From Desulfosoma sp. (GTDB taxonomy: Bacteria > Desulfobacterota > Syntrophobacteria > Syntrophobacterales > DSM-9756), in contig JBBFKW010000003.1 in the NCBI GenBank assembly GCA_037481835.1, forward strand, positions 67,462 to 131,461: a stretch of 64,000 nucleotides of DNA, given 5' to 3'. A program made the translations under genes and the position numbers. The notes under the pieces are model-generated. The model was not told the DNA's origin and did no database searches. It saw only the letters and a list, made by a program, of their open reading frames with translations. Of this stretch, positions 10,389 through 27,481 are shown piece after piece. Each line of letters starts with the position of its first letter. Position 1 is the first letter of the stretch.

Positions 10389-11732
10389 TTATTCTTCCAG
10401 ACCGTAGGCTTTAATCTTGCGGTAGAGGGTCTTTCGACTGATCCCGAGCGCCCGTGCCGCGTCGCTTCGATTCCCGGAAAAGAGGGCCAAGGCCTTTTGA
10501 ATGTGCAGGCGTTCCACCTCGTGAAGAGGGAGGCATCTGCGTGGATCGGCCCCGTATGGCCGTAGGTCGCCCGTCAGTTCCCGAGGCAGGCTGTGGGGCA
10601 GGATCACGGTGCTTTCCGAAAGGATTATGCACCGTTCCAGCACGTTTCGCAGTTCTCGAACATTGCCGGGCCAGTCGTAGGCCATGAGATGCACCAAAGT
10701 TTCGTCGGCAAGACGGTAAGGATGAGCCGGGGGACTCAAAAGGCCGAGGAGGTGCTCCACAAGGACCGGGATGTCCTCCCGCCGTTCCCGAAGTGGCGGC
10801 AAATGAAGGTGAAAGACGTTGAGTCGATGGTACAGGGCTTCATGGAATCGGCCCGCCCGCATCTCCGCCGAAAGGTCCCGATGGGTCGCGAAAAGAAAGC
10901 GCACATCCACGCTGCGCTCCTGCTGTTCGCCCACGCGCCGAAACTTCTTGGTTTCCAGCAAGCGCAGCAGCGCGCCCTGGAGTTCCAGGGGCATGTCCCC
11001 GATTTCGTCAAGGAAGAGGGTCCCGCCTTCCGCCAAACTCACGAGACCCTCCCGGGTTTCCAGCGCCCCAGTAAAAGCCCCCTTCACGTATCCGAAAAGT
11101 TCGCTGCGCAAAAGATCCTTTTGCAGAGACGCACAGTTCTTGACGATGAAAGGCCCCTTGGCGCGCCCGCTCAGGGCATGGATGTTCCGGGCCGCCACGT
11201 CCTTCCCCGTGCCCGATTCCCCCGTAATGAGTACCGAGGTGTCATGGGGGGCCACTTTTTCGATGAGCTTGATAATGCGGCGTATCGCCTCGGAACGGCC
11301 GACGAGCCGTGGGGCCTCGGCGCCTTTTTGTCCCTCGAGCAGCCGTCGGTTATGTTTTTTGAGGCACACCCGTTCATAGGCTTTGTCCAAGACCACATCC
11401 AGCCGTTCCAGGTTGAAAGGCTTGGTAATGTAGTCGTAGGCGCCCATTTTCATGGCCTTAAGGGCGCTTTCCACGGTCCCGTAGCCGGTGATCATGATGA
11501 CTTCGGCGTCGGGGAGTTTTTCCTTCAGGGAATTCAAAAGATCCAGCCCGTCGCCGTCCGGGAGGCGAATGTCGGCGACGATCACGTCGAAGGTTTCGCG
11601 ATCTGCCATGGCCAAAGCGGCGACCGCGCTTTCCGCCGTGGCGATGTGACGGTGTGGAGCGGCCAATTCCCTTTCCGCAAGTTTGCGGATGGATGCTTCG
11701 TCGTCGATGACAAGAACGCGCATGGGAGTCAT
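10389..11732 (-). CDS. Sigma54-dependent response regulator (NtrC family)
   Basis: Receiver (VIDDE, DIRLP, KPF), AAA+ (GESGTGKD, SELFGYVKGAFTGA, LFLDEIG, WPGNVREL), Fis-type HTH. Confidence 0.95.
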   Translation of the reverse strand: MTPMRVLVIDDEASIRKLAERELAAPHRHIATAESAVAALAMADRETFDVIVADIRLPDGDGLDLLNSLKEKLPDAEVIMITGYGTVESALKAMKMGAYDYITKPFNLERLDVVLDKAYERVCLKKHNRRLLEGQKGAEAPRLVGRSEAIRRIIKLIEKVAPHDTSVLITGESGTGKDVAARNIHALSGRAKGPFIVKNCASLQKDLLRSELFGYVKGAFTGALETREGLVSLAEGGTLFLDEIGDMPLELQGALLRLLETKKFRRVGEQQERSVDVRFLFATHRDLSAEMRAGRFHEALYHRLNVFHLHLPPLRERREDIPVLVEHLLGLLSPPAHPYRLADETLVHLMAYDWPGNVRELRNVLERCIILSESTVILPHSLPRELTGDLRPYGADPRRCLPLHEVERLHIQKALALFSGNRSDAARALGISRKTLYRKIKAYGLEE

Positions 11733-12922
11733 GACATCTTCCCGAAAACGACTCGAAAGACGGATCCTTCCCCCTGTCGGCTTTCCACTTCGATGGAGGC
11801 GTCATGGGCTTGGGCGATGGTATAGCACATGGACAGGCCCATACCCGTGCCGCGACCGACGGGTTTGGTGGTGAAGAACGGATCGAAGATTTTGTCGAGA
11901 TCCTTGGGGGCGATGCCACAGCCCGTGTCCCGGACTTCAAGGAACACGTGGTCTTCCCCGCGGATTCCCGTGCGTACGGTGATCGTCCCCTTCGTGTCGG
12001 CCACGGCGTCAATGGCGTTGAGCAGCAGGTTGAGCAGGAGCTGCTTGATTTCGGAAGGCGTCCCGCGAATGGGGGGCAGATTGGGTGCGCATTCCTGGTG
12101 TAGGCCGATGTGGGGATATTCTTTGAGTTTGTGCCGAATCAAGCGCACCGTGTCCTGGACGCAGCCGTTCAAGTCCACTGCGATCATGGTCCCTGAATGG
12201 GGGCGACTAAAGCTGAGGAGGCCCTGGACGATCTCCTGGCACCGGGCGCATTCGTCCAGGATGATCCCCATGTATTCTTCCAAGTCGGATCCAAAGTCTT
12301 CAGGGAGCCGATCCCGGACTTCAGGCAGCCGCTTTTTGATGGCCTGAGCAAAGCCCAGGATGGCTGTCAGGGGATTGTTGATTTCGTGGGCCACGCCCGC
12401 AGCCAACAACCCGACCGTGGACATCTTTTCCGCGTGGTTCAACTTCGCCTGGTATTCGCGCTCGAGGGTGACGTCCCTTTTCAAGAGGAGGACATGGCAA
12501 GGGCGTCCTTGGGAATCCCTGAGGGGCGACGCCGTGATCTCAAAATGACGGGTCACGTCCCCCACCTTGTAGATGTGTTCCTGGCGGCACAGCCGGTTGG
12601 TGCGGAAGGCGATTTCCGCAGGACAGGGGCGGCACGGTTCTTCCTGCTTTCGAAATACCCTGTAACACGCCCGTCCCACGGGGGAGCTTTCTCCAAAGAC
12701 GTCGTAATACACCCGATTGACGGAAGTAATGCGTCCTTTCGGCGTGATGACCGCCATAATGTCGGTGATGCCGTCCAGAATGGCTTGGATTTGCTGCCGC
12801 CGGCGCTCCAGTTCCACCGTGGAAGCGTGCAGCTGGGCGATCTTTTCTTGGGCTTCTCGAAAAAAGCCCAGCTTGGAATATTCGATGCCGATGAGGTCTT
12901 CCAGCTTGGGAGGGGGTTTCAT
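11729..12922 (-). CDS. PAS-domain sensor histidine kinase
   Basis: Starts MKPPPKLEDL at 12922 (TGATG overlap with the upstream gene); PAS-like region; H-box AHEINNPL, N-box, DTGCGI, FFTTK, GTGMGL. Confidence 0.92.
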   Translation of the reverse strand: MKPPPKLEDLIGIEYSKLGFFREAQEKIAQLHASTVELERRRQQIQAILDGITDIMAVITPKGRITSVNRVYYDVFGESSPVGRACYRVFRKQEEPCRPCPAEIAFRTNRLCRQEHIYKVGDVTRHFEITASPLRDSQGRPCHVLLLKRDVTLEREYQAKLNHAEKMSTVGLLAAGVAHEINNPLTAILGFAQAIKKRLPEVRDRLPEDFGSDLEEYMGIILDECARCQEIVQGLLSFSRPHSGTMIAVDLNGCVQDTVRLIRHKLKEYPHIGLHQECAPNLPPIRGTPSEIKQLLLNLLLNAIDAVADTKGTITVRTGIRGEDHVFLEVRDTGCGIAPKDLDKIFDPFFTTKPVGRGTGMGLSMCYTIAQAHDASIEVESRQGEGSVFRVVFGKMS

Positions 12923-14064
12923 CACCAAGCCTCCTCGCAGATGGACAAGAGATCCTCCCACGTGGCGGGTCTCGGGTTGGTGAGAAGGCACGCATCCTGG
13001 GCGGCCATGCGACATACCGTGGGCAGTTGGTCTCTGTCGGGGACCAGGTCGCGCAGGCGATGTTTCATGCCCAGAGAATGGAACAGGCTTCCCAGGTTTT
13101 CGATGCCCGCAAGAGCCGCCGCCCGCTCGTTGCGCCACTTTTTCCCGGTAAGAATTTTTCCGATTTGAGCCAATTTGGGCAAGGCATGGTCCAAGTTGAA
13201 TCGCATCACGGCCGGCAGCAGCACCGAATGGACCTCGCCGTGGAGGATGTCGAACATGCCGCCCAGGGAATGGGCCAGAGCATGGTCCGCCCCCAAACTG
13301 GCGTTGCTGAAAGCCATGCCTGCCGCCGTGCTCGCGATGCTCAAGGGCTCCAAGACGTCCAGGGATGGTTCCTGGGCCGCTTGAGGCAGATGCGCGGCAA
13401 TGATTTCGATGGCCTTGAGGGATTGCAGTTCGGTGAAAGGGGAGGCGATGACGGACACGTAAGATTCCACGGCATGGGCCAAGGCGTCGACGGCGGCGGC
13501 CAAGACGAGATGCTGGGGCTTGGTGACCAATAGCACCGGATCGATGATGGAAATGTTGGGCACCAGGGTGCGGCTGACGATGGTCATTTTGAGACGCCGG
13601 CGCGTATCGGTGATGATGGCGAACTGCGATATGTCGGATCCGCTTCCCGCCGTGGAAGGCAAAAAGACCATGGGAGGCAAGGGCCGGTGAATCCGGTTGG
13701 CTCCTTCGTAGTCGTGAATGGATCCGCCGTTTCCGGCCACAATGGCGATCCCTTTGGCGGCGTCCATGGGACTGCCGCCCCCCAGGGCGATGATCACATC
13801 GGCCTTCTGTTCGGCATAGAACAAAGCGCCGTGGGCCACCTGGGTGTCTCGGGGGTTGGAGACCACATCTTCGAAGTAGCACCATTGCAAGCCTTCCGCC
13901 GCAAGGACGTCGAAAAGGCGTGAGACCCACCCGGCTTCGCGAAGTCCGGGATCGCTCACCACCAAGGGCTTTTCAGCCCCGAGCCTTTTGGCGCAGAGCC
14001 CGGCGTATTTCAACGCGCCGCGCCCGAAGATGATTTCGGGAATGGAAAACTTGACGATGTCCAT
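12922..14064 (-). CDS. ercA: Fe-ADH-like protein, probably the ErcA-type regulatory paralogue
   Basis: GGGSPMD, PSTAGSGSD, DALAH, HALAH, LHG; translationally coupled to the kinase, as in the ErcA/ErcS arrangement. Confidence 0.75.
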   Translation of the reverse strand: MDIVKFSIPEIIFGRGALKYAGLCAKRLGAEKPLVVSDPGLREAGWVSRLFDVLAAEGLQWCYFEDVVSNPRDTQVAHGALFYAEQKADVIIALGGGSPMDAAKGIAIVAGNGGSIHDYEGANRIHRPLPPMVFLPSTAGSGSDISQFAIITDTRRRLKMTIVSRTLVPNISIIDPVLLVTKPQHLVLAAAVDALAHAVESYVSVIASPFTELQSLKAIEIIAAHLPQAAQEPSLDVLEPLSIASTAAGMAFSNASLGADHALAHSLGGMFDILHGEVHSVLLPAVMRFNLDHALPKLAQIGKILTGKKWRNERAAALAGIENLGSLFHSLGMKHRLRDLVPDRDQLPTVCRMAAQDACLLTNPRPATWEDLLSICEEAW

Positions 14065-14073
14065 GACGTGTCC

Positions 14074-15408
14074 TCATGAGTCCTTGTGGTCGTGCCGGGG
14101 CCCTGCCGTTTCATAGTATCGCCGGTAGAGCACGGCATTGGAAACCCCCAGGAAGTGGGCAAACAGGGTGGCGTGATTGCGGAGCGACGTCTTGAGCAGG
14201 CCTCCGGCGAGGTAACGGCGTGGAGAGGTCGGCAACGCATCGGGAACGACGAGGAGCCGGCCCAGGGGTCGGCACGAGCGCACAAAGTCCACATCTTCCA
14301 TGAGATAGGGCCGGCGGAAGCCTCCGACCGCATCAAAGGTATCCCTGCGGCAGAACATGCCTTGGTCGCCGTAGGGCAAACGAAACAGACGCGTTCTCAA
14401 ATTGGCCCAGGCCGCGATGGCGTTCAGAGCGCGGTTGGTAGGGGAGAAAGCCAGGCGGAAACAACCCAAGGCGAAACGTTCGTCCCGGGCGATGGTTCGC
14501 ACCTGGTAGGCCGCCGCAAAATTGGGAAGACAATCGTCGTGGAGAAACCAGAGAATCCTCCCGGGGCTCACTCGGACTCCGGCATTCATCTGCAGCCCGC
14601 GTCCCAGAGCGCTTTCGACCCACACAAGGCCGTTTGCCCGTTTGTTTTCCGAAAGGGGCGGCGAGGATGAGCCGTGGACGACGCACAGGGTATCCTGGGG
14701 CCAGAGGATCCCCTGGAGGGTCTGCAGCCACGGGCGCAGCGCCGCCCTGGGTGCCGTCGTGGGAACAATGACGGAGACGGGGTTCGAAAACGCCCAGTGG
14801 CGGTCCAGACAAGAAAGATCGTCCGGGCGGTCGATATCGGTCCGGACGGGCAAAAGGGCGGGAGGGAGGCCGAGGCGTTCCAGGGACGTTCGGGTTCGTT
14901 CAAAGACATCGGCCGTTCCCCAGGAAGGGGAGGTGAAAATGGGCGGACACGGCCGACGAAGCCCGATGGCGTAAAAACCGCCGTCCCGGGCCGGGCCCAG
15001 CACGGCGTCCCGGTAATGCAAGCTTTGGAAGGCGTTTCGAAGATCCTTCGCGCTGAGATCGCAAAGATCGGATCCCACGAGAACGACCGTGCCGTAGCCT
15101 CGATGGAAAAGTTCTTGAAAGGCTTCGGCCATGCGTCGGCCCAGGTGTTCCCCCTTTTGGGCAACGACCGGCCACGGGACGCCGAAACGCCGGCGGAAGG
15201 CTTCGAGGTGTTCCTCCGCGCTTACGGCCACAAAGACGGCCGTGTCCGGGCAGAGCCGGCAAAAATCATGGACGACGCCCAAGGTGTAGCGAAGGAGCTT
15301 TTCGTAAAGGTCGCAGGCCGCTTGCGCGCCCAGGTCCGGCACCAGCCGTGTCTTGACCTTTCCCGGTTCGGGGTGGCGCGCGAAAACGATGAGGGCTTTT
15401 CGATCCAT
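14074..15408 (-). CDS. Fusion of a DUF2064/CofC-like (TIGR04282-type) transferase and a GT2 (TIGR04283-type) glycosyltransferase
   Basis: N-half FARHPEPGKVKTRL, QKGEHLGRRM, VGSD, GPARDGGFY, DIDRPDD; C-half VSVIVPT, GRGLQMNAG, PYGDQGMF, LMEDVDF, TSPRRY. Confidence 0.85.
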   Translation of the reverse strand: MDRKALIVFARHPEPGKVKTRLVPDLGAQAACDLYEKLLRYTLGVVHDFCRLCPDTAVFVAVSAEEHLEAFRRRFGVPWPVVAQKGEHLGRRMAEAFQELFHRGYGTVVLVGSDLCDLSAKDLRNAFQSLHYRDAVLGPARDGGFYAIGLRRPCPPIFTSPSWGTADVFERTRTSLERLGLPPALLPVRTDIDRPDDLSCLDRHWAFSNPVSVIVPTTAPRAALRPWLQTLQGILWPQDTLCVVHGSSSPPLSENKRANGLVWVESALGRGLQMNAGVRVSPGRILWFLHDDCLPNFAAAYQVRTIARDERFALGCFRLAFSPTNRALNAIAAWANLRTRLFRLPYGDQGMFCRRDTFDAVGGFRRPYLMEDVDFVRSCRPLGRLLVVPDALPTSPRRYLAGGLLKTSLRNHATLFAHFLGVSNAVLYRRYYETAGPRHDHKDS

Positions 15409-17372
15409 CAGTACGCGAGACTACCCAGGGAACGCATGATGAGCGTAAAACCCATGGCGAGCATGCCCATGAGGCCCATGCCGCATGAAAATCCGGCAAG
15501 GAGCACCGGGGCGTACTGGCGCCAGGCCAACCCGTACTTCTTGGAAAAGTAATAGCGGCCGAGGAAGGCCCCGATGATTTCCAGGAAGATGCCGTGAGGC
15601 GTGGACTGGCCCAGGCCTCGCACGATCCCGTAAATGAGCAGGATGGGCCAGTGGAAGAGGCTCAGGACGGCATAGACCACGGTGCCCAGCCCCAGGCCCC
15701 AGAGGACGTATTGGCCCTTCAGGGCTTCGAAGAAAGGGGAATAGCCTTCCAGAGTGGCGCTTTGCAGGAGCAGCGTGTTTAGCGCCTGCAGGTGCCAGAG
15801 TTCTTGGGCGTACGGGTACTGGCTCGACGGGATGGGGGCCAGTCTCCAGATGTATTGGGAGAACAGAAGGCTGGCGATCATGACCACCGGAAAGACCAAG
15901 ATTTCCGCCTTGATGATGCTTCGAAAGCTCGTGCCCGTCAATTCGATTTCCCGCCAGCGCACCGTGGCCTTTCCGTAATTGTGAAAGGGGATGGGCGCAT
16001 ACCAAATGCCGATCCCATGGTAGCCGAAAAACTTGGACGCGGCGATGAAACTGGCTTCCCGCACCATGGGAAGACTCACGAACTGGCCCGTGATGCCCTC
16101 CATGCGCGCTGAGACGTAACTGATGAACGGCGTATACACGAACCCGTAGGCCACGAGAAAGATCCACGGGAAGCCCGGCACGAGGATGGAACACAGGACC
16201 ACATAGGCAAGGGTTGAAGCCACATAGATGGCGATGGCGATCCACACGCTGAAATCGCCTCGACCCGGCGGCGGTTCGAAGAGCTTTTTCAGCCTCTCGC
16301 GAAGCGGTGCCATGGAATCAGAGCGCAGTCCTCGAAAAACCTGGACGATGCCGATCACCGCGATGGCCAACCCGATGCCGATGCCGAAGCTCATGTAAAA
16401 GTCGAAATTATTGGCGAAAACCGTGTCCACCGTGCCCATGCCCTTATGCCAGCGCTGCAGGATCCCGTGGTGGTACAAAACGGGATTGGCCGCCAAGGTG
16501 ATGAGGAACCCGATGGCGCCACCCATGACGGCCCAGAAGGGCAACACCATGCCGATGAAGAGCAGGCCCAGGTCCAACTGAATGCCGGTGGCCACCGCCG
16601 GCAGAATGTCTTCCGTCACCGGGGTGAGCTCGATCCAGGGAATGGGAAGGAGCCGCACGGGTTCCGAGAGGATCACCCCGGAGGCGGCCGGAAGGAGGAC
16701 GTAGATCGACCCGAAACACAACCCGATCATGCCGCCGATGGAAAACAGCCGCCATTTCCAGCCCGTCTCCTTCTTTTCCGTGGATTCGGCCAGGGCCATG
16801 TTGCCCAAGGCCCCAACGGGCGCCATGGGAAAGGGGAGCTTTTCCACATCGGAGGTCAGCCGGTACAGGGCATAGCCCAAACCGAAATGATCCACGGCCT
16901 GGATGAGCTCAAAGCCCACCATGAGCAGAATGGGCACCAGCCAATCCCTGTGGAAGAAGGTCCTTTCGATGAGGGATTCGGACCCCGGCTGGGGCGCCAC
17001 CCAGGAGGGGATGTACTGGGTGAGCCCGAGCATCCTGGCCGCTTCCGACTGCACCAGGTATTGGTTCCACAGAAGGCCGGAAAACGGCGAGGCCATGGCG
17101 GCTCCGGCCATGTAGTAAAGCACGAAAATTTCCTGCTGGTTCAGCCTCGTGTAGGCCCGTTTGGCCACTTCCGCAAAAAGGATAATCGTCACCCACCGCG
17201 CCGCCGGGCCGATCCCGGTGCCGATCACCAGCCCCAGGTACATGGACCCGGGCATCATGAGAAAGCCGATGAAGATGGCTCCGATGACGGATTTCCATCC
17301 GAAGCCGTCGCGGAATTCTTCCGGGGGCTTCAGAAGATCCCGATATTCTTTAAGTTCCTTGTCCTCGATCAT
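15408..17372 (-). CDS. Polytopic membrane protein, OPT/peptide-transporter-like
   Basis: Starts MIEDKELKEYRD; 654 aa with many hydrophobic segments; EKLPFPMAPVG motif resembles the OPT family; TGATG overlap with the downstream gene. Confidence 0.75.
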   Translation of the reverse strand: MIEDKELKEYRDLLKPPEEFRDGFGWKSVIGAIFIGFLMMPGSMYLGLVIGTGIGPAARWVTIILFAEVAKRAYTRLNQQEIFVLYYMAGAAMASPFSGLLWNQYLVQSEAARMLGLTQYIPSWVAPQPGSESLIERTFFHRDWLVPILLMVGFELIQAVDHFGLGYALYRLTSDVEKLPFPMAPVGALGNMALAESTEKKETGWKWRLFSIGGMIGLCFGSIYVLLPAASGVILSEPVRLLPIPWIELTPVTEDILPAVATGIQLDLGLLFIGMVLPFWAVMGGAIGFLITLAANPVLYHHGILQRWHKGMGTVDTVFANNFDFYMSFGIGIGLAIAVIGIVQVFRGLRSDSMAPLRERLKKLFEPPPGRGDFSVWIAIAIYVASTLAYVVLCSILVPGFPWIFLVAYGFVYTPFISYVSARMEGITGQFVSLPMVREASFIAASKFFGYHGIGIWYAPIPFHNYGKATVRWREIELTGTSFRSIIKAEILVFPVVMIASLLFSQYIWRLAPIPSSQYPYAQELWHLQALNTLLLQSATLEGYSPFFEALKGQYVLWGLGLGTVVYAVLSLFHWPILLIYGIVRGLGQSTPHGIFLEIIGAFLGRYYFSKKYGLAWRQYAPVLLAGFSCGMGLMGMLAMGFTLIMRSLGSLAY

Positions 17373-17413
17373 GGGACGTCTCCGCGTGCCGTTCCCTGCA
17401 CCGCCCGAAGGAC

Positions 17414-19396
17414 CTACAAAGGAAGCACATGATAGCTGATGGGCATGAACAGACCGACGATGAGCCACGCGACGGCCATGACCATGTCTCCCACGATGAG
17501 GCCGATGAAGAGCCGTCGCACTTCCTTGAAGCTCTGGACGCCGCCGTAGCGCAGCACCAGGGTGTTGCACACCCATCCCACGAGAAAGCTGAACCACAAG
17601 ATGCGCAATGCCGAACTGTACGTGGTGAGGTATCCGATGGGATGCAAGGGCCACCACAGAAAGCGCCGATACCCGAAGACCAAAAGCGCCATGACCGCAG
17701 CCCCCACCCCGGCGAAAACCATGCTCCACTTCTTGGGCTCTTCGGGATAGCGAAGCAGCTGCGCCACACCTTCATGAACCCGCCGGCTCGTTTCCACGGC
17801 CCAGTCGTCCGGAAGCATGCTGATGCCGTATTGAAAGCTCATAACGAGCATGGCCGCACCCGAAACGATGACGCCCAAAACAATGGCGGCAAGAATGCCG
17901 AACAAAAAGCGCCGCCGCGTGCGGAGCCCCTCCGCCGCCTTGGACGCATGAAAAAGGGACGGCATCAAGGATTCCCGCACGTCCACGAACGCCACCTTTT
18001 GAATGACGAGCGCCATGGCCAGGGTCAGGGGCGCAAGGGTCTTCGTTGCCGTCATGGACAAAAAACCGTCGGACGGGGCGGCCGTAAGGGTGAAGTAGGG
18101 CAGGCCGCCCTGGCAGATAAGACGGGCGGTCACCACGTGGAGCATGAAGCAGACGCCGAGGAAAAACGCCGCCGCGACGGGATCCATGCCGAAGGAGATC
18201 ATCCACACGACGGCTCCCAGTCCTCCGCCGAGAAAAAGGACCATGGATGTCCTGGGATGCAGGAGGCTCTTGGGAGGCTCCTCTCCTGACGCATTCCGCC
18301 CGGTGAAGCTCACGAGCACTTCCTTCAGGTGGTACCGGGCGAGCCACACAATGAAGAAGAAAAACACGGCGAAGGCGCCGATCATCTGCATTTCTTCCAC
18401 CCGGGCGAGCACCGGGCCGAAGGTGGTCCCCAGGGCCGCCGACGGAAGCTTCCATCCCACGAGCTGCAGAAGTCCCGGCAGGAGGCCCCCCAGCAGGAAG
18501 AAAAACCACAGGCTGAAGGAGACCTGTTTGGACGTGAGGTACGCAAACCCGATGAAGGCGGGATAAAGGTAGATTTTGACCTTGGCGAAGCCCGAAAGGA
18601 GCCCTTCCCGCGGGATGTAGGGCTGTGCCAGAAACAAGACGGGAATCTGGGGCACCTGGGGGTAATAGGTATGCAGCCCGTTCAACAGATGAAGCAGTAC
18701 GGGGATGGAAAATCCGATGAGGAAAGTCTTTCGCGCGAAATAACGGCCAAGGGCCCCCTTTTCGGATTCTTGGCCGATTTCCATGGGCACCCGAAGGAGC
18801 GGGAAATTCATCTTTTCGTTTTCGATCCACTGGTGGCTGAAAAGCCCGGTGAGGCCCAAAAAGGCCGCGTACACGCAGACGATGAAAACACCCCACAGGC
18901 TCAGGGGCGCGACCCAAATGGACCACGGAATCCGCGAGAGGACTTCGTACCAGGCGAGGTTCCGACCGCCTTCCAAACCACGGTACAGAAGCTGCACCGT
19001 TTCGGTGTCCTTGGGAAAGAGCCCGTCGGGCAGGAGCTCAAGGAGAGCCTTGCCTGCCGGGTGGCCCGTGGCCGTAAGCCAGGCCGGCGTGGAGATGTTG
19101 ATGAGAAACGTGCGGAAAAGGCCCGTATAAGCGATTCCCGTGGACACGGTGACCATGGCCCACAGGAGTAGAAGTTCATGGGCGGCCAAGGCGGCTCGAG
19201 GACTGATTTTTCGGGCCACGGGGTTGTACAGCACGGCGAAAAGCAGCAGCACGGCGAAAGAGGTCAGGGGGAAATGTCCGCCCGCAAGGGGGCTGTTTTG
19301 AAGCCGCACGTTGTTGTACGGAGTCAGCGCGCAGAAGAGAACCGACAGGAGAATGCCGACTCCCACAACGCCCCAGCGCAGTTTTCGTCCATGCAT
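17414..19396 (-). CDS. Polytopic membrane protein (DUF6785-like, OPT-related)
   Basis: 660 aa, many TM segments, WIENEKMNFPL and WWPLHPIGY motifs. Confidence 0.75.
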   Translation of the reverse strand: MHGRKLRWGVVGVGILLSVLFCALTPYNNVRLQNSPLAGGHFPLTSFAVLLLFAVLYNPVARKISPRAALAAHELLLLWAMVTVSTGIAYTGLFRTFLINISTPAWLTATGHPAGKALLELLPDGLFPKDTETVQLLYRGLEGGRNLAWYEVLSRIPWSIWVAPLSLWGVFIVCVYAAFLGLTGLFSHQWIENEKMNFPLLRVPMEIGQESEKGALGRYFARKTFLIGFSIPVLLHLLNGLHTYYPQVPQIPVLFLAQPYIPREGLLSGFAKVKIYLYPAFIGFAYLTSKQVSFSLWFFFLLGGLLPGLLQLVGWKLPSAALGTTFGPVLARVEEMQMIGAFAVFFFFIVWLARYHLKEVLVSFTGRNASGEEPPKSLLHPRTSMVLFLGGGLGAVVWMISFGMDPVAAAFFLGVCFMLHVVTARLICQGGLPYFTLTAAPSDGFLSMTATKTLAPLTLAMALVIQKVAFVDVRESLMPSLFHASKAAEGLRTRRRFLFGILAAIVLGVIVSGAAMLVMSFQYGISMLPDDWAVETSRRVHEGVAQLLRYPEEPKKWSMVFAGVGAAVMALLVFGYRRFLWWPLHPIGYLTTYSSALRILWFSFLVGWVCNTLVLRYGGVQSFKEVRRLFIGLIVGDMVMAVAWLIVGLFMPISYHVLPL

Positions 19397-19399: not shown

Positions 19400-22300
19400 C
19401 TATCCTTGCCCTGTGAAGGAAGCCGGCACGGGAGCGGGTGCCGCTTCGGGGCCGAGGGGTGCGGCCCAGCGGGTGTAAAGGGCCTTGGTGTTCGCGTCCA
19501 GGAGCCGCCACAAAAGCATCTGCTTGCGCATGACCTTGATGAAATTGCGGTTGGCGCGCTGCCATGCCGTGCGTTCCCCGGAAAGGCGGATCATCTGCAG
19601 CGCCACTTCCATGTAGCCGGGATCGTCCGCCGACGGGCAGCAGTGCAGATGGAGCCTCTGCTTGATGCCGAAATCGAAGGGGGCCAGCCACACGTTGGCG
19701 TAGAGCCACATGCAGACCGGTTCGGGAAGGTGCGTGCCGTCGCTTTCCGGGGCGGCCGGGGCGAGGTGCACGTCGTCCACGATGAAGGGCCCTTGAGCCA
19801 CATCCTGGTGATCCCGGATGAAAGCGCTCAGAAAGGCCATGATCCCCGGTTCTTCTTCGGGCTTGAGAAGGAAGGGCAGATGGAGTTCCAGGAGATCCCC
19901 TTGGGCCTTGGGCACGGTCCAGGTGCGGGTCACATCGGGCATGGCCAAGGCGGCGGCCACGCGCGCCGGATACAAGGACGCCAAGAGCACCACGGAAAAG
20001 ACGAGGACCATGCACGCCACGCTGGCCAGGGAGGAGTAGTTGAAGGTAAGTTCGGAAAAGAGCTGGGTTTTTCCCAAGAAGTGGGCTGTGAGCTGGGCGA
20101 GGATGTAGCCGATGACCGTGGAAAGGACCGCTAGGGAGAGGGCTTCCACGATGAACAAGAATCCCACGTGGTTGGGGGCGAGGCCTACGGAGGTGTAGAC
20201 GCCGATTTCCGATTTGCGCTCATGAACATGGCCGATCATGGTGTTTAGGCAGATGAAAACCACGATGAGCATGGGCACGAGCAGATTGGCCACTCCTTGG
20301 TAGCGCAGGGTCTTGGCCGCCGAATGAAAATACGTGACGTCGGCTCCGACGTAGAGGGGGTAGGTGAGCCTGCGGGAAAGGTCGTCGGCGATGTCCAAGG
20401 CCGTTTCGGACGTGTCGGTAATGAGCGCGACCGCCCGCAACGTGCCTCCCAAGGAAAGGCACGTGTGGTGCGGAATCAGAACGACGGCATCGCCCGCCGC
20501 CGAGCGGAACCGTTCGACCATGGGCCCGACGGCCTCCCCGGCTTGCATGGCTTCCGCTTCGGCCTCGGAAAGGTCTTCGTCCGGGGAAATTTCTAAGTAA
20601 GCGGGTTTGACGGAGGTGCCGTCCAGGTCGGTAAAAGTTTCCAGGTGGTTCGGATCGAAAAAACCGATGACGGTCAAGGGGACTTCCCACAAATGGACGA
20701 CCGCCCCCACGTCCCGGGTGGGCTCCAGACCCAGCTTTCGTGCCAAACTCGTGGGAAGGAGCACCGCCCGGCCGTCTTCTTCGGTGAACCACCGGCCCGC
20801 TGTGACGATCTTTTTCAGGGCCTCTGGCGCATGGGGGCCGACCCCGAGGACCCCTTCCACGGGGACCACCTCGTTACGGGCGGCGACGGATGCGACGGCC
20901 CGAAGGGATGGATGAGAGGGGTCGATCCAGGAACGGGGCCACAGCACGGCCCGATTCCCGTAGCGTGCCGCAAGACTTTCCAAGGAGACGGACGTCAGAG
21001 GCCTCCACAGATGATGGTGCAGAAGCACCCCCACGTAGGCCGGGGTTTCCCCTACCCGGGTCATGGTCGTCTTCGTTAGGCTCCGGACGTTGGTAAACGA
21101 CATGATGGTGAAGGTGAGGATGATCAGGGTCACCGAAGTGAGTGCCGTGCGAAGGCGCCTTCGATTCAGGTTGGAGGCTCCGATGGCGAACCCGGCCCCG
21201 AAGGCCTGCCACTTGTTGACACTTTCCTTGGCCGCCGCCGGAGAGCCGCCGCCCGCCGACGTCCCTCCCATTTCTTGTTCGAATCGCATGAAGAGGATCC
21301 AGGATACCAAGACGCTCAGCGCCACGATAAAAAAGGCGATGATGACCACCATGGGGTTGTAGGTCAGGCGGAAAGCCGGGTGCAGGGCGCGGATGGTGAG
21401 GATGGTGGCGATGAGAAGCAGGAAAAAGGCCGTGATCTGCTTGTAGATGTTTCGAAAGCAGAAGAGATAGCGTTCCAGGCAGTAAGCGAAAGGCACAAAG
21501 AGGGCGATGAAGAACATGACCCCGCCCAAGACGTCCCTTTGGGTGTTTTCGATTTCGTTGTAGACGGAATTGAGTTTGGCCCAGGCGGACACGGTCCTGT
21601 CCCAGGCGAGGCTGTGGCGCAGGGCGGTTTCATCCTCGCGCGCCCGCTCCCGCTCTTCCAAGGCGTCCCGGTACAGGTTTTCCAAATAGCGGTTACTGAT
21701 GCCATGGGCGATGAGATTTTTCAGGCGCTCGCCCACCAAGTGGACCAGATCTTCCACGACCCGCTCAGGGGTTCGCGTGATCACGGAAGGCTCCCCGATA
21801 GCGTAGCCCAAGCCCATGGGGTTTTCGGCATCGCCTTTGATGAGCAGGAATTCCTTGCGCAGCAGCGTGTCGGAAAGGATGACCTTGAATCGGGCGCCCC
21901 TTTCCAAAAACAGGGACACGGCGAAAGTGTCCCGGCCGTCCACGCGGCTGTACCAATACCGCAATGGACGCGCTCCCGTAACCCCGTCCAACACGGTGAT
22001 CTTGGTCAGGTAATCCAGGCGCTGGGGGTCCAAGACGCCCACGATGTCCGTCTGCCGGCAGGGAAACATGACCAGCGTCGTGGAAGCGATGCGCCCCTTG
22101 ATGTTCAGGCGGTAACTATCCTTGGAGGTCTGCACCTTGTCGGCGACCCAGCGGATCTTTCCCGTTTCGGGATCGACCCCATAGGGTTCCAGGATGAGCT
22201 TTTGGAAGGCGACCCGCTTGTTGGCCACCGCCGGGATGAAAAAGGAGCCGTCGCGAAAGGTCATGGCCCGAACGAGGGAATTGCCTTGCAAAGCGCAGAC

Positions 22301-24184
22301 AATGGTTCCCGGAGCCGGCTTGTCCGGGAAGAGTTCCCCTTGCCGGATGAACATGGCGCGGCCTTCCACCGACGCCAGGCCTTCAAAGCCCATCCGGCAG
22401 CTTTCCTTGAGTTTGGGATGGCCGAGGACCTTGGCCAAAATGGCGGGGAAGGCGTCTTGGTAGGCTCTGACGCCGTCCCAATCCATCCGGGTCTTGACGT
22501 CTTCGGGCGTTTCCCAGAGGGTGCGCCGGTTGTTGGCCCCGGTGAGGGCGAAAGACGGACAGCCGGTCAAGGCGCCGATATCGCACGCCATGCAGTGGGG
22601 CCCTTGGCTTTCCACGGCGCGGGGTGCCGTGTCCGCACCATGGCGGGCCGTTTTTTCAAAAAGAGGGGCCCGTCCCGTGTGCCGGGCCACCTCTTCCGCC
22701 GCCTGGCGGAAAAAATCGGCCAGAGCCACATTGCGAACGAGCCGGTACACCTGCTCGCGCAAGGGAAAGGTGCCACCCCATTCGCTGAGGGTGACCCAGC
22801 GGGAGTGGGACGACAGGGACAGGCCGATGTGGAGCACCCTTTCGAAATCGTCCGCCAGGGAGCGCAAATCCCCCCACGATTTGACGGCCTTCAGCCGGGC
22901 TTGGGTTTCCGCGCGTTCCTTTTGCAGGTCTCCGAGCCCCGAGCGGATGAGATCCACGGCCAAAGCGCGTTCCTCCGGCCCCAGTTCCTCGGGCGATTCC
23001 TTCCAGCTTAGGCGCCGATACACCAGCGCCTGCGCCGCCAGGGCCTTTTCATGGGGGGCCTCGCGGCTCAAACGATCCGCTTCGTCCTTGGCCCGTTCCA
23101 CGACATGGGACCACACTCGGGACAGGGCGCGTGGATCCTCGGGGTCGGGCTGCATGGGGTCGGGTCGGGAAAGGAGCCCGAGGAGTTCCTGCAGGTCTTT
23201 TTGTCTGTCCGAAAGGGTGCGCTGTTCTTGCCGGAGGGTGCGCCGAGGTGCTTCCAAAGCCCACAGGAAATGGCGCGTGCCCGAAAGGCCCTGGCCGTGG
23301 CCGGATACCGCCGCAAGAAGAACGCTTCGCGCCGGCGGATCGGCCGCCAGGACCTCGGCCAGATGGACCAGCACGGCCGCCGAAAGAGCCTGGTCGGCGC
23401 CCGGAGCCAACCCGACCACGTGGGATGCCGCATCGTATGGCGCTTCGATAATGACGAGTTCTTTGGCGAGATCCGGCGAGGATCCCGGAATCAGCCCGTA
23501 GACGTTGTGCGCCGTTCGGTGTTCCCAGTGGCTGCGAACGTATGCGTGCGCCCGCGCGTTTCGGGATGCGGCCCGGCGCAGGGCCGCGCCCACTTCGGGC
23601 GGAACGTAAAACCTCGGAAAATCCAAAGGGGTCGGGATGTCCTTCACGGCGAAGTCGTCCCGGCTGTCTTCCGCCCCGCCGAGGAAGATGACGGCCTTGG
23701 CCCCCATCTGGGCGGCGAACCACCAGTTTTCCCCGGAAGAGACGTCCATGAGCACGAGAGCGTCTTGGATGGTGTGCCCGTCGAATCGGTGCAACGCCCC
23801 GTCCCCGACGTCCACCAAGGGACCTTCAAGGCCCGAAGGCGGCGTTTGAGACAGCATGGCCATGTTGGGAGCCCAGGGAAAGAGGGGGTAGGTTTCCGAT
23901 CCCACGGTGATCCTCCCCTCGTCCAAAACGGGAACGGGCACAAAGAAAGCCTGGCGGCCGACGGGTTTGAGGCCCGCACGTTCAAAGGCTTGGGCGATGT
24001 AGTCGGCGGCGGCCTCGCAGCCCGGAGATCCTGTGGAACGGTCGGTGGTTTGGGTGAGGGCTTCCAGGTGGCGAAAGAGGGGGTCTTCCGCCCGGGCGAC
24101 GGCGCATGCGGAAAAAACGCCCATGAGGACGGCGAGAAGGACGGCGGAAACCCGAAATGTGCGGCGTCGTGCCTTCATGTTCAC
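19400..24184 (-). CDS. 1594-aa protein: signal peptide, PA-inserted M28-peptidase-like domain, TM block, MacB-like periplasmic domain, FtsX-type permease
   Basis: N-terminal signal (ARA|ED), DRSTGSPG, HNVYGLIPG, APGAD; LNRRRLRTALT and ERKSEIGVYTSVGLAP FtsX motifs. Confidence 0.85.
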   Translation of the reverse strand: MNMKARRRTFRVSAVLLAVLMGVFSACAVARAEDPLFRHLEALTQTTDRSTGSPGCEAAADYIAQAFERAGLKPVGRQAFFVPVPVLDEGRITVGSETYPLFPWAPNMAMLSQTPPSGLEGPLVDVGDGALHRFDGHTIQDALVLMDVSSGENWWFAAQMGAKAVIFLGGAEDSRDDFAVKDIPTPLDFPRFYVPPEVGAALRRAASRNARAHAYVRSHWEHRTAHNVYGLIPGSSPDLAKELVIIEAPYDAASHVVGLAPGADQALSAAVLVHLAEVLAADPPARSVLLAAVSGHGQGLSGTRHFLWALEAPRRTLRQEQRTLSDRQKDLQELLGLLSRPDPMQPDPEDPRALSRVWSHVVERAKDEADRLSREAPHEKALAAQALVYRRLSWKESPEELGPEERALAVDLIRSGLGDLQKERAETQARLKAVKSWGDLRSLADDFERVLHIGLSLSSHSRWVTLSEWGGTFPLREQVYRLVRNVALADFFRQAAEEVARHTGRAPLFEKTARHGADTAPRAVESQGPHCMACDIGALTGCPSFALTGANNRRTLWETPEDVKTRMDWDGVRAYQDAFPAILAKVLGHPKLKESCRMGFEGLASVEGRAMFIRQGELFPDKPAPGTIVCALQGNSLVRAMTFRDGSFFIPAVANKRVAFQKLILEPYGVDPETGKIRWVADKVQTSKDSYRLNIKGRIASTTLVMFPCRQTDIVGVLDPQRLDYLTKITVLDGVTGARPLRYWYSRVDGRDTFAVSLFLERGARFKVILSDTLLRKEFLLIKGDAENPMGLGYAIGEPSVITRTPERVVEDLVHLVGERLKNLIAHGISNRYLENLYRDALEERERAREDETALRHSLAWDRTVSAWAKLNSVYNEIENTQRDVLGGVMFFIALFVPFAYCLERYLFCFRNIYKQITAFFLLLIATILTIRALHPAFRLTYNPMVVIIAFFIVALSVLVSWILFMRFEQEMGGTSAGGGSPAAAKESVNKWQAFGAGFAIGASNLNRRRLRTALTSVTLIILTFTIMSFTNVRSLTKTTMTRVGETPAYVGVLLHHHLWRPLTSVSLESLAARYGNRAVLWPRSWIDPSHPSLRAVASVAARNEVVPVEGVLGVGPHAPEALKKIVTAGRWFTEEDGRAVLLPTSLARKLGLEPTRDVGAVVHLWEVPLTVIGFFDPNHLETFTDLDGTSVKPAYLEISPDEDLSEAEAEAMQAGEAVGPMVERFRSAAGDAVVLIPHHTCLSLGGTLRAVALITDTSETALDIADDLSRRLTYPLYVGADVTYFHSAAKTLRYQGVANLLVPMLIVVFICLNTMIGHVHERKSEIGVYTSVGLAPNHVGFLFIVEALSLAVLSTVIGYILAQLTAHFLGKTQLFSELTFNYSSLASVACMVLVFSVVLLASLYPARVAAALAMPDVTRTWTVPKAQGDLLELHLPFLLKPEEEPGIMAFLSAFIRDHQDVAQGPFIVDDVHLAPAAPESDGTHLPEPVCMWLYANVWLAPFDFGIKQRLHLHCCPSADDPGYMEVALQMIRLSGERTAWQRANRNFIKVMRKQMLLWRLLDANTKALYTRWAAPLGPEAAPAPVPASFTGQG

Positions 24185-24265: not shown

Positions 24266-25000
24266 CTAAAGGACCTGGCCTATGGAAACCTGGAGCTTTT
24301 CCCGATCCTCGATGCGGTCGATGCGGCCGTCCCGAATCCAGACGACGCGGTCCGACACGTTGATCATCTTGATGTCGTGTGTGGCCGAAATGATCGTAAC
24401 ACCCCGCTCTTGGGACAGTTCCTTGAGAAGCGAAATGATTTCTTCCCCGGTGCTCAAATCCAGGTTTCCCGTGGGTTCGTCGGCCAGGATGATGGCCGGA
24501 TCGTTGGCCAGGGCCCGGGCGACAGCCACCCGCTGCTGCTGGCCGCCGGAAAGTTCGGCCGGCTTGTGCTGAAAGCGCTCCGCCAGTCCCACGAGCCTGA
24601 GCAGTTCCATGCCCTTGTCCATGTACTCGTCGCGGCCCATGCCGGCGAAGATCATGGGCAGCGTCACGTTTTCGATGGCGGTCATGACCTGAATGAGGTT
24701 GAAGGTCTGGAAGATGTAGCCGATCTTTCGGCACCGAAGCCATGCCAATTCATAGGCGTCCAGTTGGGCCACGTCCACTTCGTCAATGAAGACGCGGCCG
24801 GAGGTGGGCTTGTCCAGAGCGCCGATCATGTTAAACAAAGTGGATTTTCCCGATCCGGACGGGCCCATGATGGACATGTATTCGCCAGCCTTGATTTCCA
24901 AGGTCACCCCGCGGAGGGCATGGACCTCTTCCTGCCCCATGCGGAAGACCTTGGTCACGTCCACCAGCCGAACCACATTGTGCGCGCCGTTTCCGCTCAT
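24266..25000 (-). CDS. ABC transporter ATP-binding protein (LolD/MacB type)
   Basis: GPSGSGKST, LSGGQQQRVAVARAL, LADEPTGNLD, ATHD. Confidence 0.95.
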   Translation of the reverse strand: MSGNGAHNVVRLVDVTKVFRMGQEEVHALRGVTLEIKAGEYMSIMGPSGSGKSTLFNMIGALDKPTSGRVFIDEVDVAQLDAYELAWLRCRKIGYIFQTFNLIQVMTAIENVTLPMIFAGMGRDEYMDKGMELLRLVGLAERFQHKPAELSGGQQQRVAVARALANDPAIILADEPTGNLDLSTGEEIISLLKELSQERGVTIISATHDIKMINVSDRVVWIRDGRIDRIEDREKLQVSIGQVL

Positions 25001-25005: not shown

Positions 25006-25662
25006 CTAAGGCTCCGATCTCAAGGCGATGGCCGGTTGCATCCGAGCCGCAACCCAGGCCGGGTACATGACGCCGATGAGGCTTAGGGCGACCGCCAGGG
25101 CCGACGATTTAACCAGCAGGGCGCCGAGGCCGATCGCCGGAAGGTGGGTGATAATGGGGGCGCCGAAGCGCGCCCACAGGGTCACGACGGCCGTACCCAC
25201 TCCCAAGACGCTTCCTGCCGCACCGCCCAGGACGCCCTGATAGGCGGCCTCCAACACGAAGAGCTTGATGACGAAACTGTCCAAGGCGCCCAAGCATTTC
25301 AAAGTGCCGATTTCCCGGAAACGCTCCGTTACGGCCATGAGCTGGGCGTTGACGATGCCGACGGCGCAGACCAGCAGGGAAAGCACCACGAGCCATCGGT
25401 CCTTGGCTGTGCTGCCGAAGTGGCCGTCCTGGGGAGTAAAGCCGGCCGAAAGGATCTTGTCCTGCAAAGCGGGCTCGGCCGCCGGCCACACCCCTTCCAG
25501 GACGGCATAAACGGCGAAGGTGTAGGAAAGAAAGGCGACGGCGAGGACGAGCGTGCTCGTTGTGATCATGGAGCGAAAGAAGCGCGCCCGCAGGGCGTTG
25601 AAGGAAATGCGGATCACCTGGGACCATGGGAGGACGATCTGTCGGTCGATGCTCTTGGCCAT
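25006..25662 (-). CDS. Small FtsX-like ABC permease
   Basis: Four TM segments; VTERFREIGTLKCLGA; YPAWVAARMQP. Confidence 0.85.
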   Translation of the reverse strand: MAKSIDRQIVLPWSQVIRISFNALRARFFRSMITTSTLVLAVAFLSYTFAVYAVLEGVWPAAEPALQDKILSAGFTPQDGHFGSTAKDRWLVVLSLLVCAVGIVNAQLMAVTERFREIGTLKCLGALDSFVIKLFVLEAAYQGVLGGAAGSVLGVGTAVVTLWARFGAPIITHLPAIGLGALLVKSSALAVALSLIGVMYPAWVAARMQPAIALRSEP

Positions 25663-25718: not shown

Positions 25719-26843
25719 TTAAGCTCTCGAGGCGAAGTTTTCAATGGCCCGAACCGTCTCAAGGGCTCCTTCGGTGCGAAGCGGCTGAACCGAAGGCCGC
25801 GGGGAAGACAAGGTCTCTTGGATTTGGGCGGCGAGCCTTTCGGGCTCCAAGGACCGAATGACGCGGAGCACCCCCCGGGATTCCAGCCGGTCGGCCCGAA
25901 GGGCCTGTTCCCGGTTTTGGGGAAAGGGGTACACGAGGGCGGTGACGCCCGAAGCCAGGATGTCCATGCAGGTGTTGTAGCCTGCCATGCTGAGAGACAG
26001 CTCGGCCTGGGCCAATTCCTTCAAGAACTCATGGGAAAAGGGGCGCCACACAATGCGGGGATCGGCTGCGGCACTCTCCTTCAGCGCCTCTCGGTCTTGA
26101 GGTTCCATGAACGGGCCTTCGTGGACCTGCAGGCGCATGTGGGGGTCCCCAAGCCTGGAGAAGGCGTGGAAGACGGCCTCGATAAAATCGATGCCGACCC
26201 TGCCGCCTCCCGTGCTGAGAACGATCCGCCCCCGGACTTTTGGGGGTGAGGGATTCGGCAGGGACCGGGTCACGTAGCCCGTGTAATGCACCGGAGGGCG
26301 GATGTCGGCGATGCGCCGGAAGGTTTCGTCGAGTCGCACGCAGGCCGGGTCGGCGTGGACCAGGATGAGGTCGAAATATCGGTTGACCAGCGAGAGCACC
26401 TTTTCTTCGTAGGCTTCCGGGTCGGCCTTTTCCACCAAGATGTCCCGAAGACTGCAGACCACGAGGGCTCGATGAGTGGAAGCTGCGTTTTTCTCGAGCA
26501 GGGGGATGAGCTCGAACTGGAAGCGTTTTCGGCCGAACGGGAAAAGTTCGATGAGGAGCACATCCGGCCTCACGGACTTCCAGAGGTCGACAAGGATCCC
26601 CGTGCGCCGTGCCTGGACCTGCCGGATGTCGCCTGCGGCCGTCTCCAGGTTTCGGAACTCGGGATCCATCCGCAAGGGGGGCAGGGCGATGCGCCGCACG
26701 TGGGCCGGGGCACGAAACCCGGGCAGAGGGTCGCCGCCTTCCACGAAAAAGACCGAGTGCCGGGAAAAAGCCGCGGCGATTTCCATGCTTCGAAGGAAAT
26801 GCCCGATACCGAGCACATACTGGCAGTAGTGAAGGATCTTCAT
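25719..26843 (-). CDS. GT-B fold glycosyltransferase (GT28 C-terminal / COG4671-like)
   Basis: MKILHYCQYVLGIGHFLRS, ELFPFGR, SLRDILV, TGGGRVG, SMAGYNT; ATGA overlap with the upstream gene. Confidence 0.85.
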   Translation of the reverse strand: MKILHYCQYVLGIGHFLRSMEIAAAFSRHSVFFVEGGDPLPGFRAPAHVRRIALPPLRMDPEFRNLETAAGDIRQVQARRTGILVDLWKSVRPDVLLIELFPFGRKRFQFELIPLLEKNAASTHRALVVCSLRDILVEKADPEAYEEKVLSLVNRYFDLILVHADPACVRLDETFRRIADIRPPVHYTGYVTRSLPNPSPPKVRGRIVLSTGGGRVGIDFIEAVFHAFSRLGDPHMRLQVHEGPFMEPQDREALKESAAADPRIVWRPFSHEFLKELAQAELSLSMAGYNTCMDILASGVTALVYPFPQNREQALRADRLESRGVLRVIRSLEPERLAAQIQETLSSPRPSVQPLRTEGALETVRAIENFASRA

Positions 26844-27481
26844 GGACCATCCGTTCCCGAACCCAGGGGGGACGGCACGCGAAGGGCTTCCCCAGAGAGC
26901 ACCCGGCGGAGCGTTTCCGTGAATTGGAGAAAAAGGGCCGTGGGATGGCGCCGCCCAAGGCGATCCAGGCTGGAGAACATTTGGTGCCGAAGCTTCAGGG
27001 ACAGTTCCACCTGCACGCCCATGCCCGCGCGACCCCGATTGCATAGGTTTTCCGGCTGAGTGCCATGGAAGAGGGGATGCGCTGCGACGGTAAAACCCGC
27101 AATCGTAAGGGCTTCGGCGCACAGGTCCCGCAGGCGGGTGTCGAGTCCCCCGAGGAAGACGTCAGCTTGGTCATGAGTGCAGCCGTGGATCGTTATGACT
27201 TTCCAGGAAGCGGTCGCAAGGGTCAGGGCCGCGGGCTCGTCGAAACGAGTGCTGGTGATGTGCAAGACGGCGTTATGCTTTCTTTTCCGTCCATCCAAGT
27301 GATAAAAGGAATGGAACCCTCGCGCGATGGCTCGGGCCGCCTCCGAGGTCCCCGGTTCGATGCCGCCGCCGTGGGGAGCCATAACCGCCAGGCCGGAACG
27401 GCCGGCCTGCCATTCGACGACGAAGTCGCGGCCGGGGTTTTCCTGGAGAAGGAGGGCTGAAAAGGAGCGGTATCCGTTCAT
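26840..27481 (-). CDS. Poly-gamma-glutamate hydrolase family protein (PghP/YjqB-like)
   Basis: APHGGGIEPGTSE, HITSTRFDEP, ITIHG, PENLCNR, GVQVELS match the family signature. Confidence 0.85.
   Translation of the reverse strand: MNGYRSFSALLLQENPGRDFVVEWQAGRSGLAVMAPHGGGIEPGTSEAARAIARGFHSFYHLDGRKRKHNAVLHITSTRFDEPAALTLATASWKVITIHGCTHDQADVFLGGLDTRLRDLCAEALTIAGFTVAAHPLFHGTQPENLCNRGRAGMGVQVELSLKLRHQMFSSLDRLGRRHPTALFLQFTETLRRVLSGEALRVPSPLGSGTDGP

Follow-up and report, generated by a model that had tools for sequence, protein, structure and literature searches.

The 64,000-nt stretch of the Desulfosoma sp. genome analysed here (assembly GCA_037481835.1, contig JBBFKW010000003.1, positions 67,462 to 131,461), referred to below as the window, carries on its minus strand a stop-free open reading frame (ORF) of 1594 codons, whose translation is designated P0001, the giant protein. 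Comparison with the N-termini of homologues places the probable start at the ATG at 24178, two codons into the frame, which gives a product of 1592 amino acids (aa); full-length homologues span 1550-1650 aa. The gene is present as a single copy in its own genome. P0001 is a membrane protein of 1,592-1,594 residues in which an outer domain with the shape of an aminopeptidase is joined to an ATP-binding cassette (ABC) permease of the MacB/FtsX type. It lies in a cassette of five genes on the same strand (Table 1): a minimal FtsX-type permease (P0003) and an ABC ATPase (P0002) precede it, and two polytopic membrane proteins follow it, namely P0005, which carries DUF6785 and DUF6784, and a 654-aa protein referred to here as MP654.

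By hydropathy and structural modelling, the M28 fold of P0001 is laid out in three segments, an N-terminal part (35-94) and two parts of the core (211-311 and 448-587), with a PA-like insert and a four-helix insert between them. The fold is followed by a beta-rich domain, a stalk of three long helices, three extra transmembrane (TM) helices, the permease module and a C-terminal domain. A first-pass annotation, made from the sequence alone, had listed an M28 fold with PA-like and helical inserts, about five TMs, a MacB-like domain, FtsX TMs and a cytoplasmic tail. All of these are found by alignment, modelling and Foldseek, and the tail is a conserved folded domain, but the beta-rich domain and the three-helix stalk were not mentioned there, and the five TMs resolve into the signal peptide, the three extra TMs (887-966) and TM1 of the FtsX module (1013-1032).

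The identity of the N-terminal half as an M28/PA fold is borne out by both profile and structure. The Pfam model Peptidase_M28 (PF04389) matches P0001 at residues 227-307 with 28.2 bits (cut-off 21.3), although only over positions 1-77 of the 193 in the profile. An AlphaFold model of residues 31-885, built on an alignment of 58 homologues, has a mean predicted local distance difference test score (pLDDT) of 92.7 and a predicted template modelling score of 0.92. Its best Foldseek matches in the PDB are aminopeptidases of family M28 with a PA domain (2ek8, E 1.2e-19, followed by BSAP/YwaD 6hc6 and PaAP 8ac7), with TfR1 and GCPII next; all have a probability of 1.0, and E-values run from 1e-19 to 1e-15. 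YwaD is also the nearest solved structure by sequence. The PA model of Pfam itself finds no match in P0001, though the PA region does align with that of YwaD/BSAP. In the model, the M28 fold, the PA insert and the helical insert are thus real and far beyond chance.

Conservation is uneven along the head. Mean identity is 0.44 in the first part of the M28 core against 0.29 in the MacB periplasmic core domain (PCD), and the head core, as judged from the alignment, is conserved at least as well as the PCD, under purifying selection and not in drift. The four-helix insert has the lowest conservation in P0001 (mean identity 0.23) and is missing from some homologues (P0056/L003). For the beta-rich domain, no sequence match was found in the PDB, Pfam or NCBIfam. 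Some homologues (P0051, P0052, P0060) carry added periplasmic modules, which are a PPIase (rotamase) domain ahead of the M28 fold, part of a LysM motif, or a seven-bladed WD40 propeller inserted before the membrane part. The partial LysM motif is in a Poribacteria homologue and the PPIase domain in another homologue. At locus L003, a rotamase-like gene lies directly upstream of the giant gene.

Residues of the metal site were equated from two independent alignments, one of HMMER to YwaD and one of hhalign, in which the family profile was aligned to the canonical M28 protein of the same genome (L093). The canonical site is given in AAP numbering (His97, Asp117, Glu151-Glu152, Asp179 and His256). 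The motifs on which the first-pass annotation had based a loss of most zinc ligands are all present, as APYD (248-251), GADQA (262-266), GHGQ (295-298), GLSL (454-457) and WET (557-559). Both alignments equate His97 with P249, the bridging Asp117 with D264 (by way of a one-residue loop deletion) and His256 with E558. In both, and in the register of EE-x-G-L-x-G-S, Glu151-Glu152 correspond to H296-G297, so that the catalytic Glu has become His and the ligand Glu has become Gly. The reported replacement of EE by GHGQ therefore stands as to the motif, and its register is now fixed at H296-G297 within it. Asp179 was assigned to S456 from strand order and the NxDM/GLSL motif, as hhalign did not place this strand reliably past the insert of 130 residues. 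The invariant D251 is the Asp of HxD. The ligand set of P0001 is P249, D264, G297, S456 and E558, of which one in five is identical to His-Asp-Glu-Asp-His, D264 being the sole canonical ligand kept. Four canonical zinc ligands and the catalytic Glu are thus missing from P0001, as judged from the alignments, the strand-order assignment of S456 and the family comparison; an acidic residue stands in for one His, and a His occupies the place of the general base.

This loss extends across the family. Glu is absent from both EE positions in all 204 representatives and homologues and in all 79 loci from GTDB species (~280 sequences). The remaining positions differ by clade. In the order 249, 264, [296]297, 456 and 558, the pattern is Y,E,[H]F,D,D in most members outside Desulfobacterota, F,D,[H]A,H,G in most Desulfobacterota, F,D,[N]G,H,S in Syntrophobacteraceae and P,D,[H]G,S,E/D in Desulfosoma, the genus of the window. 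Most members outside Desulfobacterota, with E264, D456 and D558 in addition to His296, hold a more complete alternative site. Y250, D251, G262, T559, P560 and D562 around the site are invariant or nearly so. Because D251, G262, T559, P560 and D562 are invariant, the clade pattern looks like mosaic decay of the site on a retained scaffold. Since both residues of the Glu-Glu pair and three of the four other ligand positions are replaced, the head is probably not a metallopeptidase. The family would then show, as a natural series, how the active site of an M28 fold decays step by step.

The fusion of this head to a permease of the MacB/LolC type, as originally proposed, is upheld by Foldseek. The model of residues 880-1594 (pLDDT 80.7) matches MacB (5gko, E 4e-13, and 5nik), Spr0694-0695 of S. 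pneumoniae, LolCDE, YtrEF, HrtBA, YbbAP, BceAB and FtsEX; the FtsEX-EnvC complexes 8i6o and 8tzk are also among the matches, and the isolated periplasmic domains of MacB (5lj8/5c59) match with E 5e-5 and TM-scores of 0.42-0.55 on the target. Pfam finds FtsX (PF02687) at 1305-1410 with 46 bits (cut-off 25.5). MacB_PCD, at 1092-1188, scores 24.8 bits, just below its cut-off of 27, and exceeds the cut-off in homologues P0052, P0056 and P0064. The module consists of TM1 (1013-1032), a periplasmic core domain (1035-1295) and TM2-4 (1296-1416), with a coupling-helix motif, ERKSEIG (1322-1328), that is invariant in the family as ER..EIG. The three extra TMs carry an invariant E904-R905 and H935-P-A-F, and together with FtsX TM1-4 they form the best-conserved part of P0001.

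The C-terminal tail of ~180 residues is a conserved alpha+beta domain with the invariants WLAPxD...RLSGE...W.R.N..F...RK..L.WR. It has no sequence match in the PDB, Pfam or NCBIfam. Weak Foldseek matches to SxtT/GxtA and PYL10 (E ~0.01-0.02) suggest that the modelled tail is possibly helix-grip (START/SRPBCC)-like.

The two genes upstream of the giant gene supply the other parts of an ABC transporter. P0002 has intact Walker A, signature, Walker B-Glu and H-loop motifs; its best scores are to models of the MacB nucleotide-binding domain (234 bits) and LolD (225 bits), with FtsE also matching. P0003 is 30% identical to TM2-4 of the giant protein. As had been noted for this 218-aa partner, it lacks a periplasmic domain and comprises only the FtsX TM2-4 module, with a loop of ~35 residues instead. 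The gap between P0003 and P0002 is 5 nt, and ~85 nt separate P0002 from the giant gene. On the other side, the P0005 gene begins 3 nt downstream of the giant gene. The next gene was listed as a 773-aa ORF (15408-17729, minus strand) that is over-extended at its 5' end; the likely MP654 start is the ATG at 17372 (MIEDKELKEYRDLL...), which fits the 651-690 aa of its Desulfobacterota orthologues. MP654 has no Pfam or NCBIfam family. In a profile-profile comparison by hhalign it matches DUF6785 with a probability of 98.1% (E 7.5e-14, ~490 columns), and by this measure it is a remote paralogue of DUF6785. It is also the best-conserved gene of the cassette, with 71-87% identity across orders of Desulfobacterota. 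Neither of the two membrane proteins has a sequence match in the PDB. A kinship of the pair with OPT proteins was not reproduced at the level of sequence: PF03169 has no match in the genome at E <= 10, and hhalign against two genuine OPT proteins gives E ~0.2.

Table 1. The giant gene, its domains and the associated genes in the window (coordinates are window positions, residues those of P0001).
Feature	Coordinates	Strand	Evidence
Giant M28-like/FtsX fusion P0001	19400..24184	-	open frame, full-length homologues, N-terminus comparison
Signal peptide or N-terminal anchor, residues 1-32 (...AVARA/ED)	24089..24184	-	hydropathy; hydrophobic homologue N-termini
M28/PA aminopeptidase-like ectodomain, residues 33-590, degenerate metal site	22415..24088	-	Pfam PF04389, model, Foldseek, ligand mapping
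PA (apical)-like insert, residues ~97-210	23555..23896	-	aligns with PA region of YwaD/BSAP; PA-bearing M28 structural matches
Four-helix insert, residues 314-444, between 'EE' helix and 'D179' strand	22853..23245	-	model secondary structure
Beta-rich periplasmic domain, residues ~600-785	21830..22387	-	model; conserved, identity 0.42
Three long helices, stalk into membrane, residues 805-884	21533..21772	-	model
Three extra TM helices, residues 885-966	21287..21532	-	hydropathy, model, invariants, identity 0.60
MacB/LolC-type (type VII ABC) permease module	19937..21157	-	Pfam FtsX + MacB_PCD, Foldseek
Cytoplasmic C-terminal domain, residues 1417-1594	19403..19936	-	alignment, model, weak Foldseek matches
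ABC ATPase P0002, 244 aa, MacB/LolD/FtsE-like	24266..25000	-	motifs intact; in 77/85 loci
Minimal FtsX-type permease P0003, 218 aa, coupling helix ERFREIG	25006..25662	-	in 71/85 loci
DUF6785 + DUF6784 polytopic membrane protein P0005, 660 aa	17414..19396	-	Pfam E 3.9e-146 and 3.8e-33; in 76/85 loci
MP654, 654-aa polytopic membrane protein	15408..17372	-	hhalign vs DUF6785; in 67/85 loci
GT28-C (MurG/MGDG-synthase-like) glycosyltransferase, 374 aa	25719..26843	-	Pfam PF04101; NCBIfam weak matches murG, MJ1255

The same order, small FtsX - ABC ATPase - giant protein - DUF6785/6784 - MP654, recurs in related genomes. Across 85 loci, the ABC ATPase is present in 77, DUF6785 in 76, the small FtsX in 71 and MP654 in 67; a GT28-like gene is found up to 8 kb upstream of the cassette in 50. 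The pairing with a minimal FtsX of ~218 aa, which the first-pass annotation had seen in the window, is thus a retained feature, as is the adjoining intact ATPase of the MacB/LolD type. DUF6785/6784 and MP654, neither of which the first-pass annotation mentioned, co-occur strictly with the giant protein; they are probably the functional core.

Other genes around the cassette are more loosely linked to it. The gene at 14074-15408 (minus strand) encodes a 444-aa protein in which TIGR04282 and TIGR04283, both 'arsenosugar biosynthesis glycosyltransferase' families, are fused (Pfam DUF2064), and its start has a 1-nt overlap with the stop of the gene before it. Of the 85 loci, only 7, mostly labelled Syntrophobacteraceae or Desulfacinum, have it linked to the cassette. 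The operon is headed by a gene of the poly-gamma-glutamate hydrolase family (26840-27481, minus strand; PF05908, E 1.7e-56), with a 4-nt overlap onto the GT28-like gene. It occurs upstream of the cassette in only one other inspected locus (L002) and is probably outside the core system. Further downstream, a 733-aa PAS/histidine-kinase ORF (11729-13930, minus strand) overlaps an Fe-ADH gene (12922-14064, minus strand). The kinase orthologue in L002 is 399 aa, and the kinase start is probably ~1 kb downstream of that of the listed ORF.

The family is widely distributed. A word-indexed search returned 62 homologues of ~1550-1650 aa from Desulfosoma, Desulfacinum, Syntrophobacteraceae, Gemmatimonadota, Poribacteria and Planctomycetota, and an exhaustive profile search at E <= 1e-30 gave 1,277 clusters at 50% identity, the top 150 of which are nearly all 1450-1800 aa long. 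At least 535 GTDB species genomes carry the family, including those of cultured Pseudodesulfovibrio, Maridesulfovibrio sp. FT414 and Desulfogranum marinum. In the class to which the window belongs, 71 of 122 genomes, from 26 of 31 genera, carry the N-terminal domain; DUF6785 is found in 74 of the 122, these being the same genomes plus three, each at most 75% complete. Public annotations of the family read only 'FtsX-like permease family protein' or 'Peptidase family M28', and full-text searches of the literature yielded no paper that treats DUF6785 or a fusion of M28 with FtsX. The 14 model genomes that served as controls all lack DUF6785, a possible reason that no study was found. The family is large, unnamed and unstudied, and forms part of an envelope system of five genes found in sulfate-reducing and many uncultured bacteria. 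Sulfate-reducing Desulfobacterota retain it widely and in single copy; there the ATPase and the second, minimal permease still stand beside the giant gene, and the complex should consequently be directly reconstitutable from this version.

Type VII ABC systems, of which few are understood, are the textbook examples of work that ATP powers outside the cytoplasmic membrane; MacB, LolCDE, FtsEX and YbbAP are among them. The explanation that we favour, and hold to be probable as a whole, is that P0001 belongs to an asymmetric type VII ABC complex with a non-catalytic M28/PA head, acting with two polytopic partners. P0001 would be the large subunit of this 'mechanotransmission' complex, which would be MacB/LolCE-like and would contain the giant permease and the minimal 218-aa FtsX once each and the adjoining ATPase twice. 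The exported N-terminal ~850 residues keep the M28/PA architecture and most likely have a non-catalytic role in binding or scaffolding, comparable to that of the transferrin receptor, nicastrin or the dead LytM domain of EnvC. Sitting beside the MacB-type periplasmic core domain, the head could be reached by ATP-driven motion of the FtsX stalk helices through the three-helix stalk and the three extra conserved TMs. The mechanical coupling of head to ATPase that had been suggested at first is in keeping with the modelled fold and the conserved coupling-helix motif; peptide binding by the head, also suggested then, would be by analogy only. The complex presumably acts together with DUF6785/6784 and MP654 on an envelope substrate. 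As the GT28-like gene is often upstream and the tail possibly START-like, a glycolipid or lipid-linked cargo is suggested, and our leading guess is a lipid-linked or glyco-conjugate of the cell envelope. More tentatively, and with rather less confidence than in the complex itself, the five-gene cassette may be a previously undescribed envelope machine. Its type VII ABC motor, topped by a dead-peptidase head, would drive or gate the two paralogous 14-TM proteins, paired as a heterodimer, and so move an envelope component.

Several observations weigh against this explanation. His296 is found in 165 of 204 and 59 of 79 sequences (~75-80% of the family), and its conservation in the alignments hints at a retained chemical or structural role. 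A remodelled mononuclear site of D264, H296 and E558 is a live minority possibility. The distant members at L001 and L003 have no ATPase or small FtsX within 10 kb, although they keep the DUF6785 and MP654 partners, and ATP coupling may therefore not be universal; the cargo guess, moreover, draws only on loosely linked glycosyltransferase genes and the weak helix-grip match. The head could still be an enzyme, whose remodelled mononuclear metal site would carry out hydrolysis or some other reaction on an envelope substrate that the ABC module feeds or positions, as in YbbAP-TesA. The site would be D264 + H296 + E558 in the clade of the window, D264/H296/H456 in most Desulfobacterota and E264/H296/D456/D558 elsewhere. 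In every major clade, 3-4 ligand or base positions still hold a metal-capable side chain, D/E264 is found in ~95% of sequences, and the active-site loop residues Y250, D251, G262, T559, P560 and D562 vary little or not at all. According to PMC12646458, hydrolases can also be partners of type VII ABC systems. We nevertheless regard an active enzyme as unlikely: the Glu general base is found in none of the ~280 sequences, three ligand positions of P0001 are P, G and S, and the candidate ligands vary by clade, several clades having lost them outright, with N, K, Q, R, Y or G at position 296, G, S or A at position 558, and S, N or Y at position 456. Such variation is typical of a decaying site, not of a selected one.

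If the head is dead, it might serve the cassette in other ways. One is that of an FtsEX-EnvC-like regulator contained in one chain, in which the dead head and the helical insert bind and activate a separate cell-wall hydrolase as the ATPase cycles. This parallels FtsEX-EnvC, where, according to PMC7668044, a dead peptidase-family domain with helices is set on a type VII ABC system, and it would accord with the Foldseek matches to 8i6o and 8tzk, with the homologues that carry a partial LysM motif or a PPIase domain, and with a genus of the window that is without a recognisable canonical FtsX. But the cassette and a canonical FtsX occur together in many genomes, the helical insert has the lowest conservation and some members lack it, the inspected loci show no linked gene for an amidase or a peptidoglycan hydrolase, and the invariant partners are polytopic membrane proteins and not hydrolases. 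We judge such a regulator the most improbable of the alternatives considered. Alternatively, the giant protein may be mainly an accessory or gate for the two 14-TM partners, which would be transporters, the whole being an uptake machine whose head would capture a ligand that is peptide-like or a metal chelate. The strict co-occurrence of the giant protein with DUF6785 and MP654, and its place next to them, are in line with this, as are the standing of MP654 as the best-conserved gene (71-87% across orders) and the members outside Desulfobacterota that are without a nearby ATPase. Against it, the kinship with OPT proteins is not reproduced by sequence (PF03169 and hhalign, as above), and neither partner has a PDB sequence match, nor MP654 a match in Pfam. 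To our knowledge, the characterised type VII ABC systems extract or export and never import. Uptake is accordingly thought improbable, nearly on a par with the enzyme. The asymmetric type VII complex with a non-catalytic head is retained as the probable explanation.

Among known systems, the permease half of P0001 is closest to MacB, LolCDE, YtrEF, HrtBA and YbbAP, with which it shares an FtsX fold of four TMs, a periplasmic core domain that follows TM1 and precedes TM2, the coupling helix ER..EIG and an adjoining ATPase of the MacB/LolD type. As with LolC and LolE, the two permease genes of the cassette also differ from each other. Unlike this group, P0001 has an ectodomain of ~850 residues and three extra TMs before FtsX and a folded tail of ~180 residues after it; the partner permease of the cassette has no periplasmic domain at all, and no MacA-type adaptor or LolA is linked. 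P0001 and P0003 are not LolCDE components, scoring 17 and 45 bits, respectively, with TIGR02212 (cut-off 362), and a genuine LolC/E (421 bits) is encoded elsewhere in the genome (G000:C17:5240-6481). Other type VII ABC permeases in the genome are a 906-aa YbbP-like protein with two FtsX modules (G000:C17:107687-110320) and an adjoining pair of 453 and 413 aa (C13:16471-18387).

Nor is the cassette FtsEX or a replacement for it, as scores with TIGR00439 are 19-21 bits (cut-off 255) and many relatives have both the cassette and a canonical FtsX. No canonical FtsX was found in the genome of the window (99.4% complete) or in its genus, g1 (G032-G034), where the best TIGR00439 score is 28 bits against the same cut-off; sister genera have one. 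PMC7668044 describes FtsEX-EnvC as a type VII ABC motor whose partner, from a metallopeptidase family, is catalytically dead and bears helical elements, and the coupling of such a motor to a dead metallopeptidase-family domain would be the likeness to the system proposed here. In FtsEX-EnvC, however, the pseudo-enzyme is a separate M23/LytM protein bound by a coiled coil, whereas in P0001 the M28/PA fold is fused in cis at the N-terminus and no amidase is linked. If the head is indeed non-catalytic, the family is an example of a type VII ABC mechanotransmitter that carries a pseudo-peptidase in cis.

The head itself has its closest counterparts in the PA-domain M28 aminopeptidases of Aneurinibacillus (AM-1, 2ek8), B. 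subtilis (BSAP/YwaD, 6hc6) and P. aeruginosa (PaAP, 8ac7), in which PA is inserted at the same place in the M28 fold. These enzymes have a full H-D-E-D-H di-zinc site and the catalytic Glu, whereas P0001 keeps the bridging Asp only, and beyond them it has the 130-residue helical insert, the beta domain and the membrane module. TfR1 and nicastrin are non-catalytic binding or gatekeeping modules, and with GCPII they share the M28+PA architecture on the outer face of a membrane. All three have a single TM anchor and no ABC module, and they show no specific kinship to P0001 beyond the fold (~12% identity).

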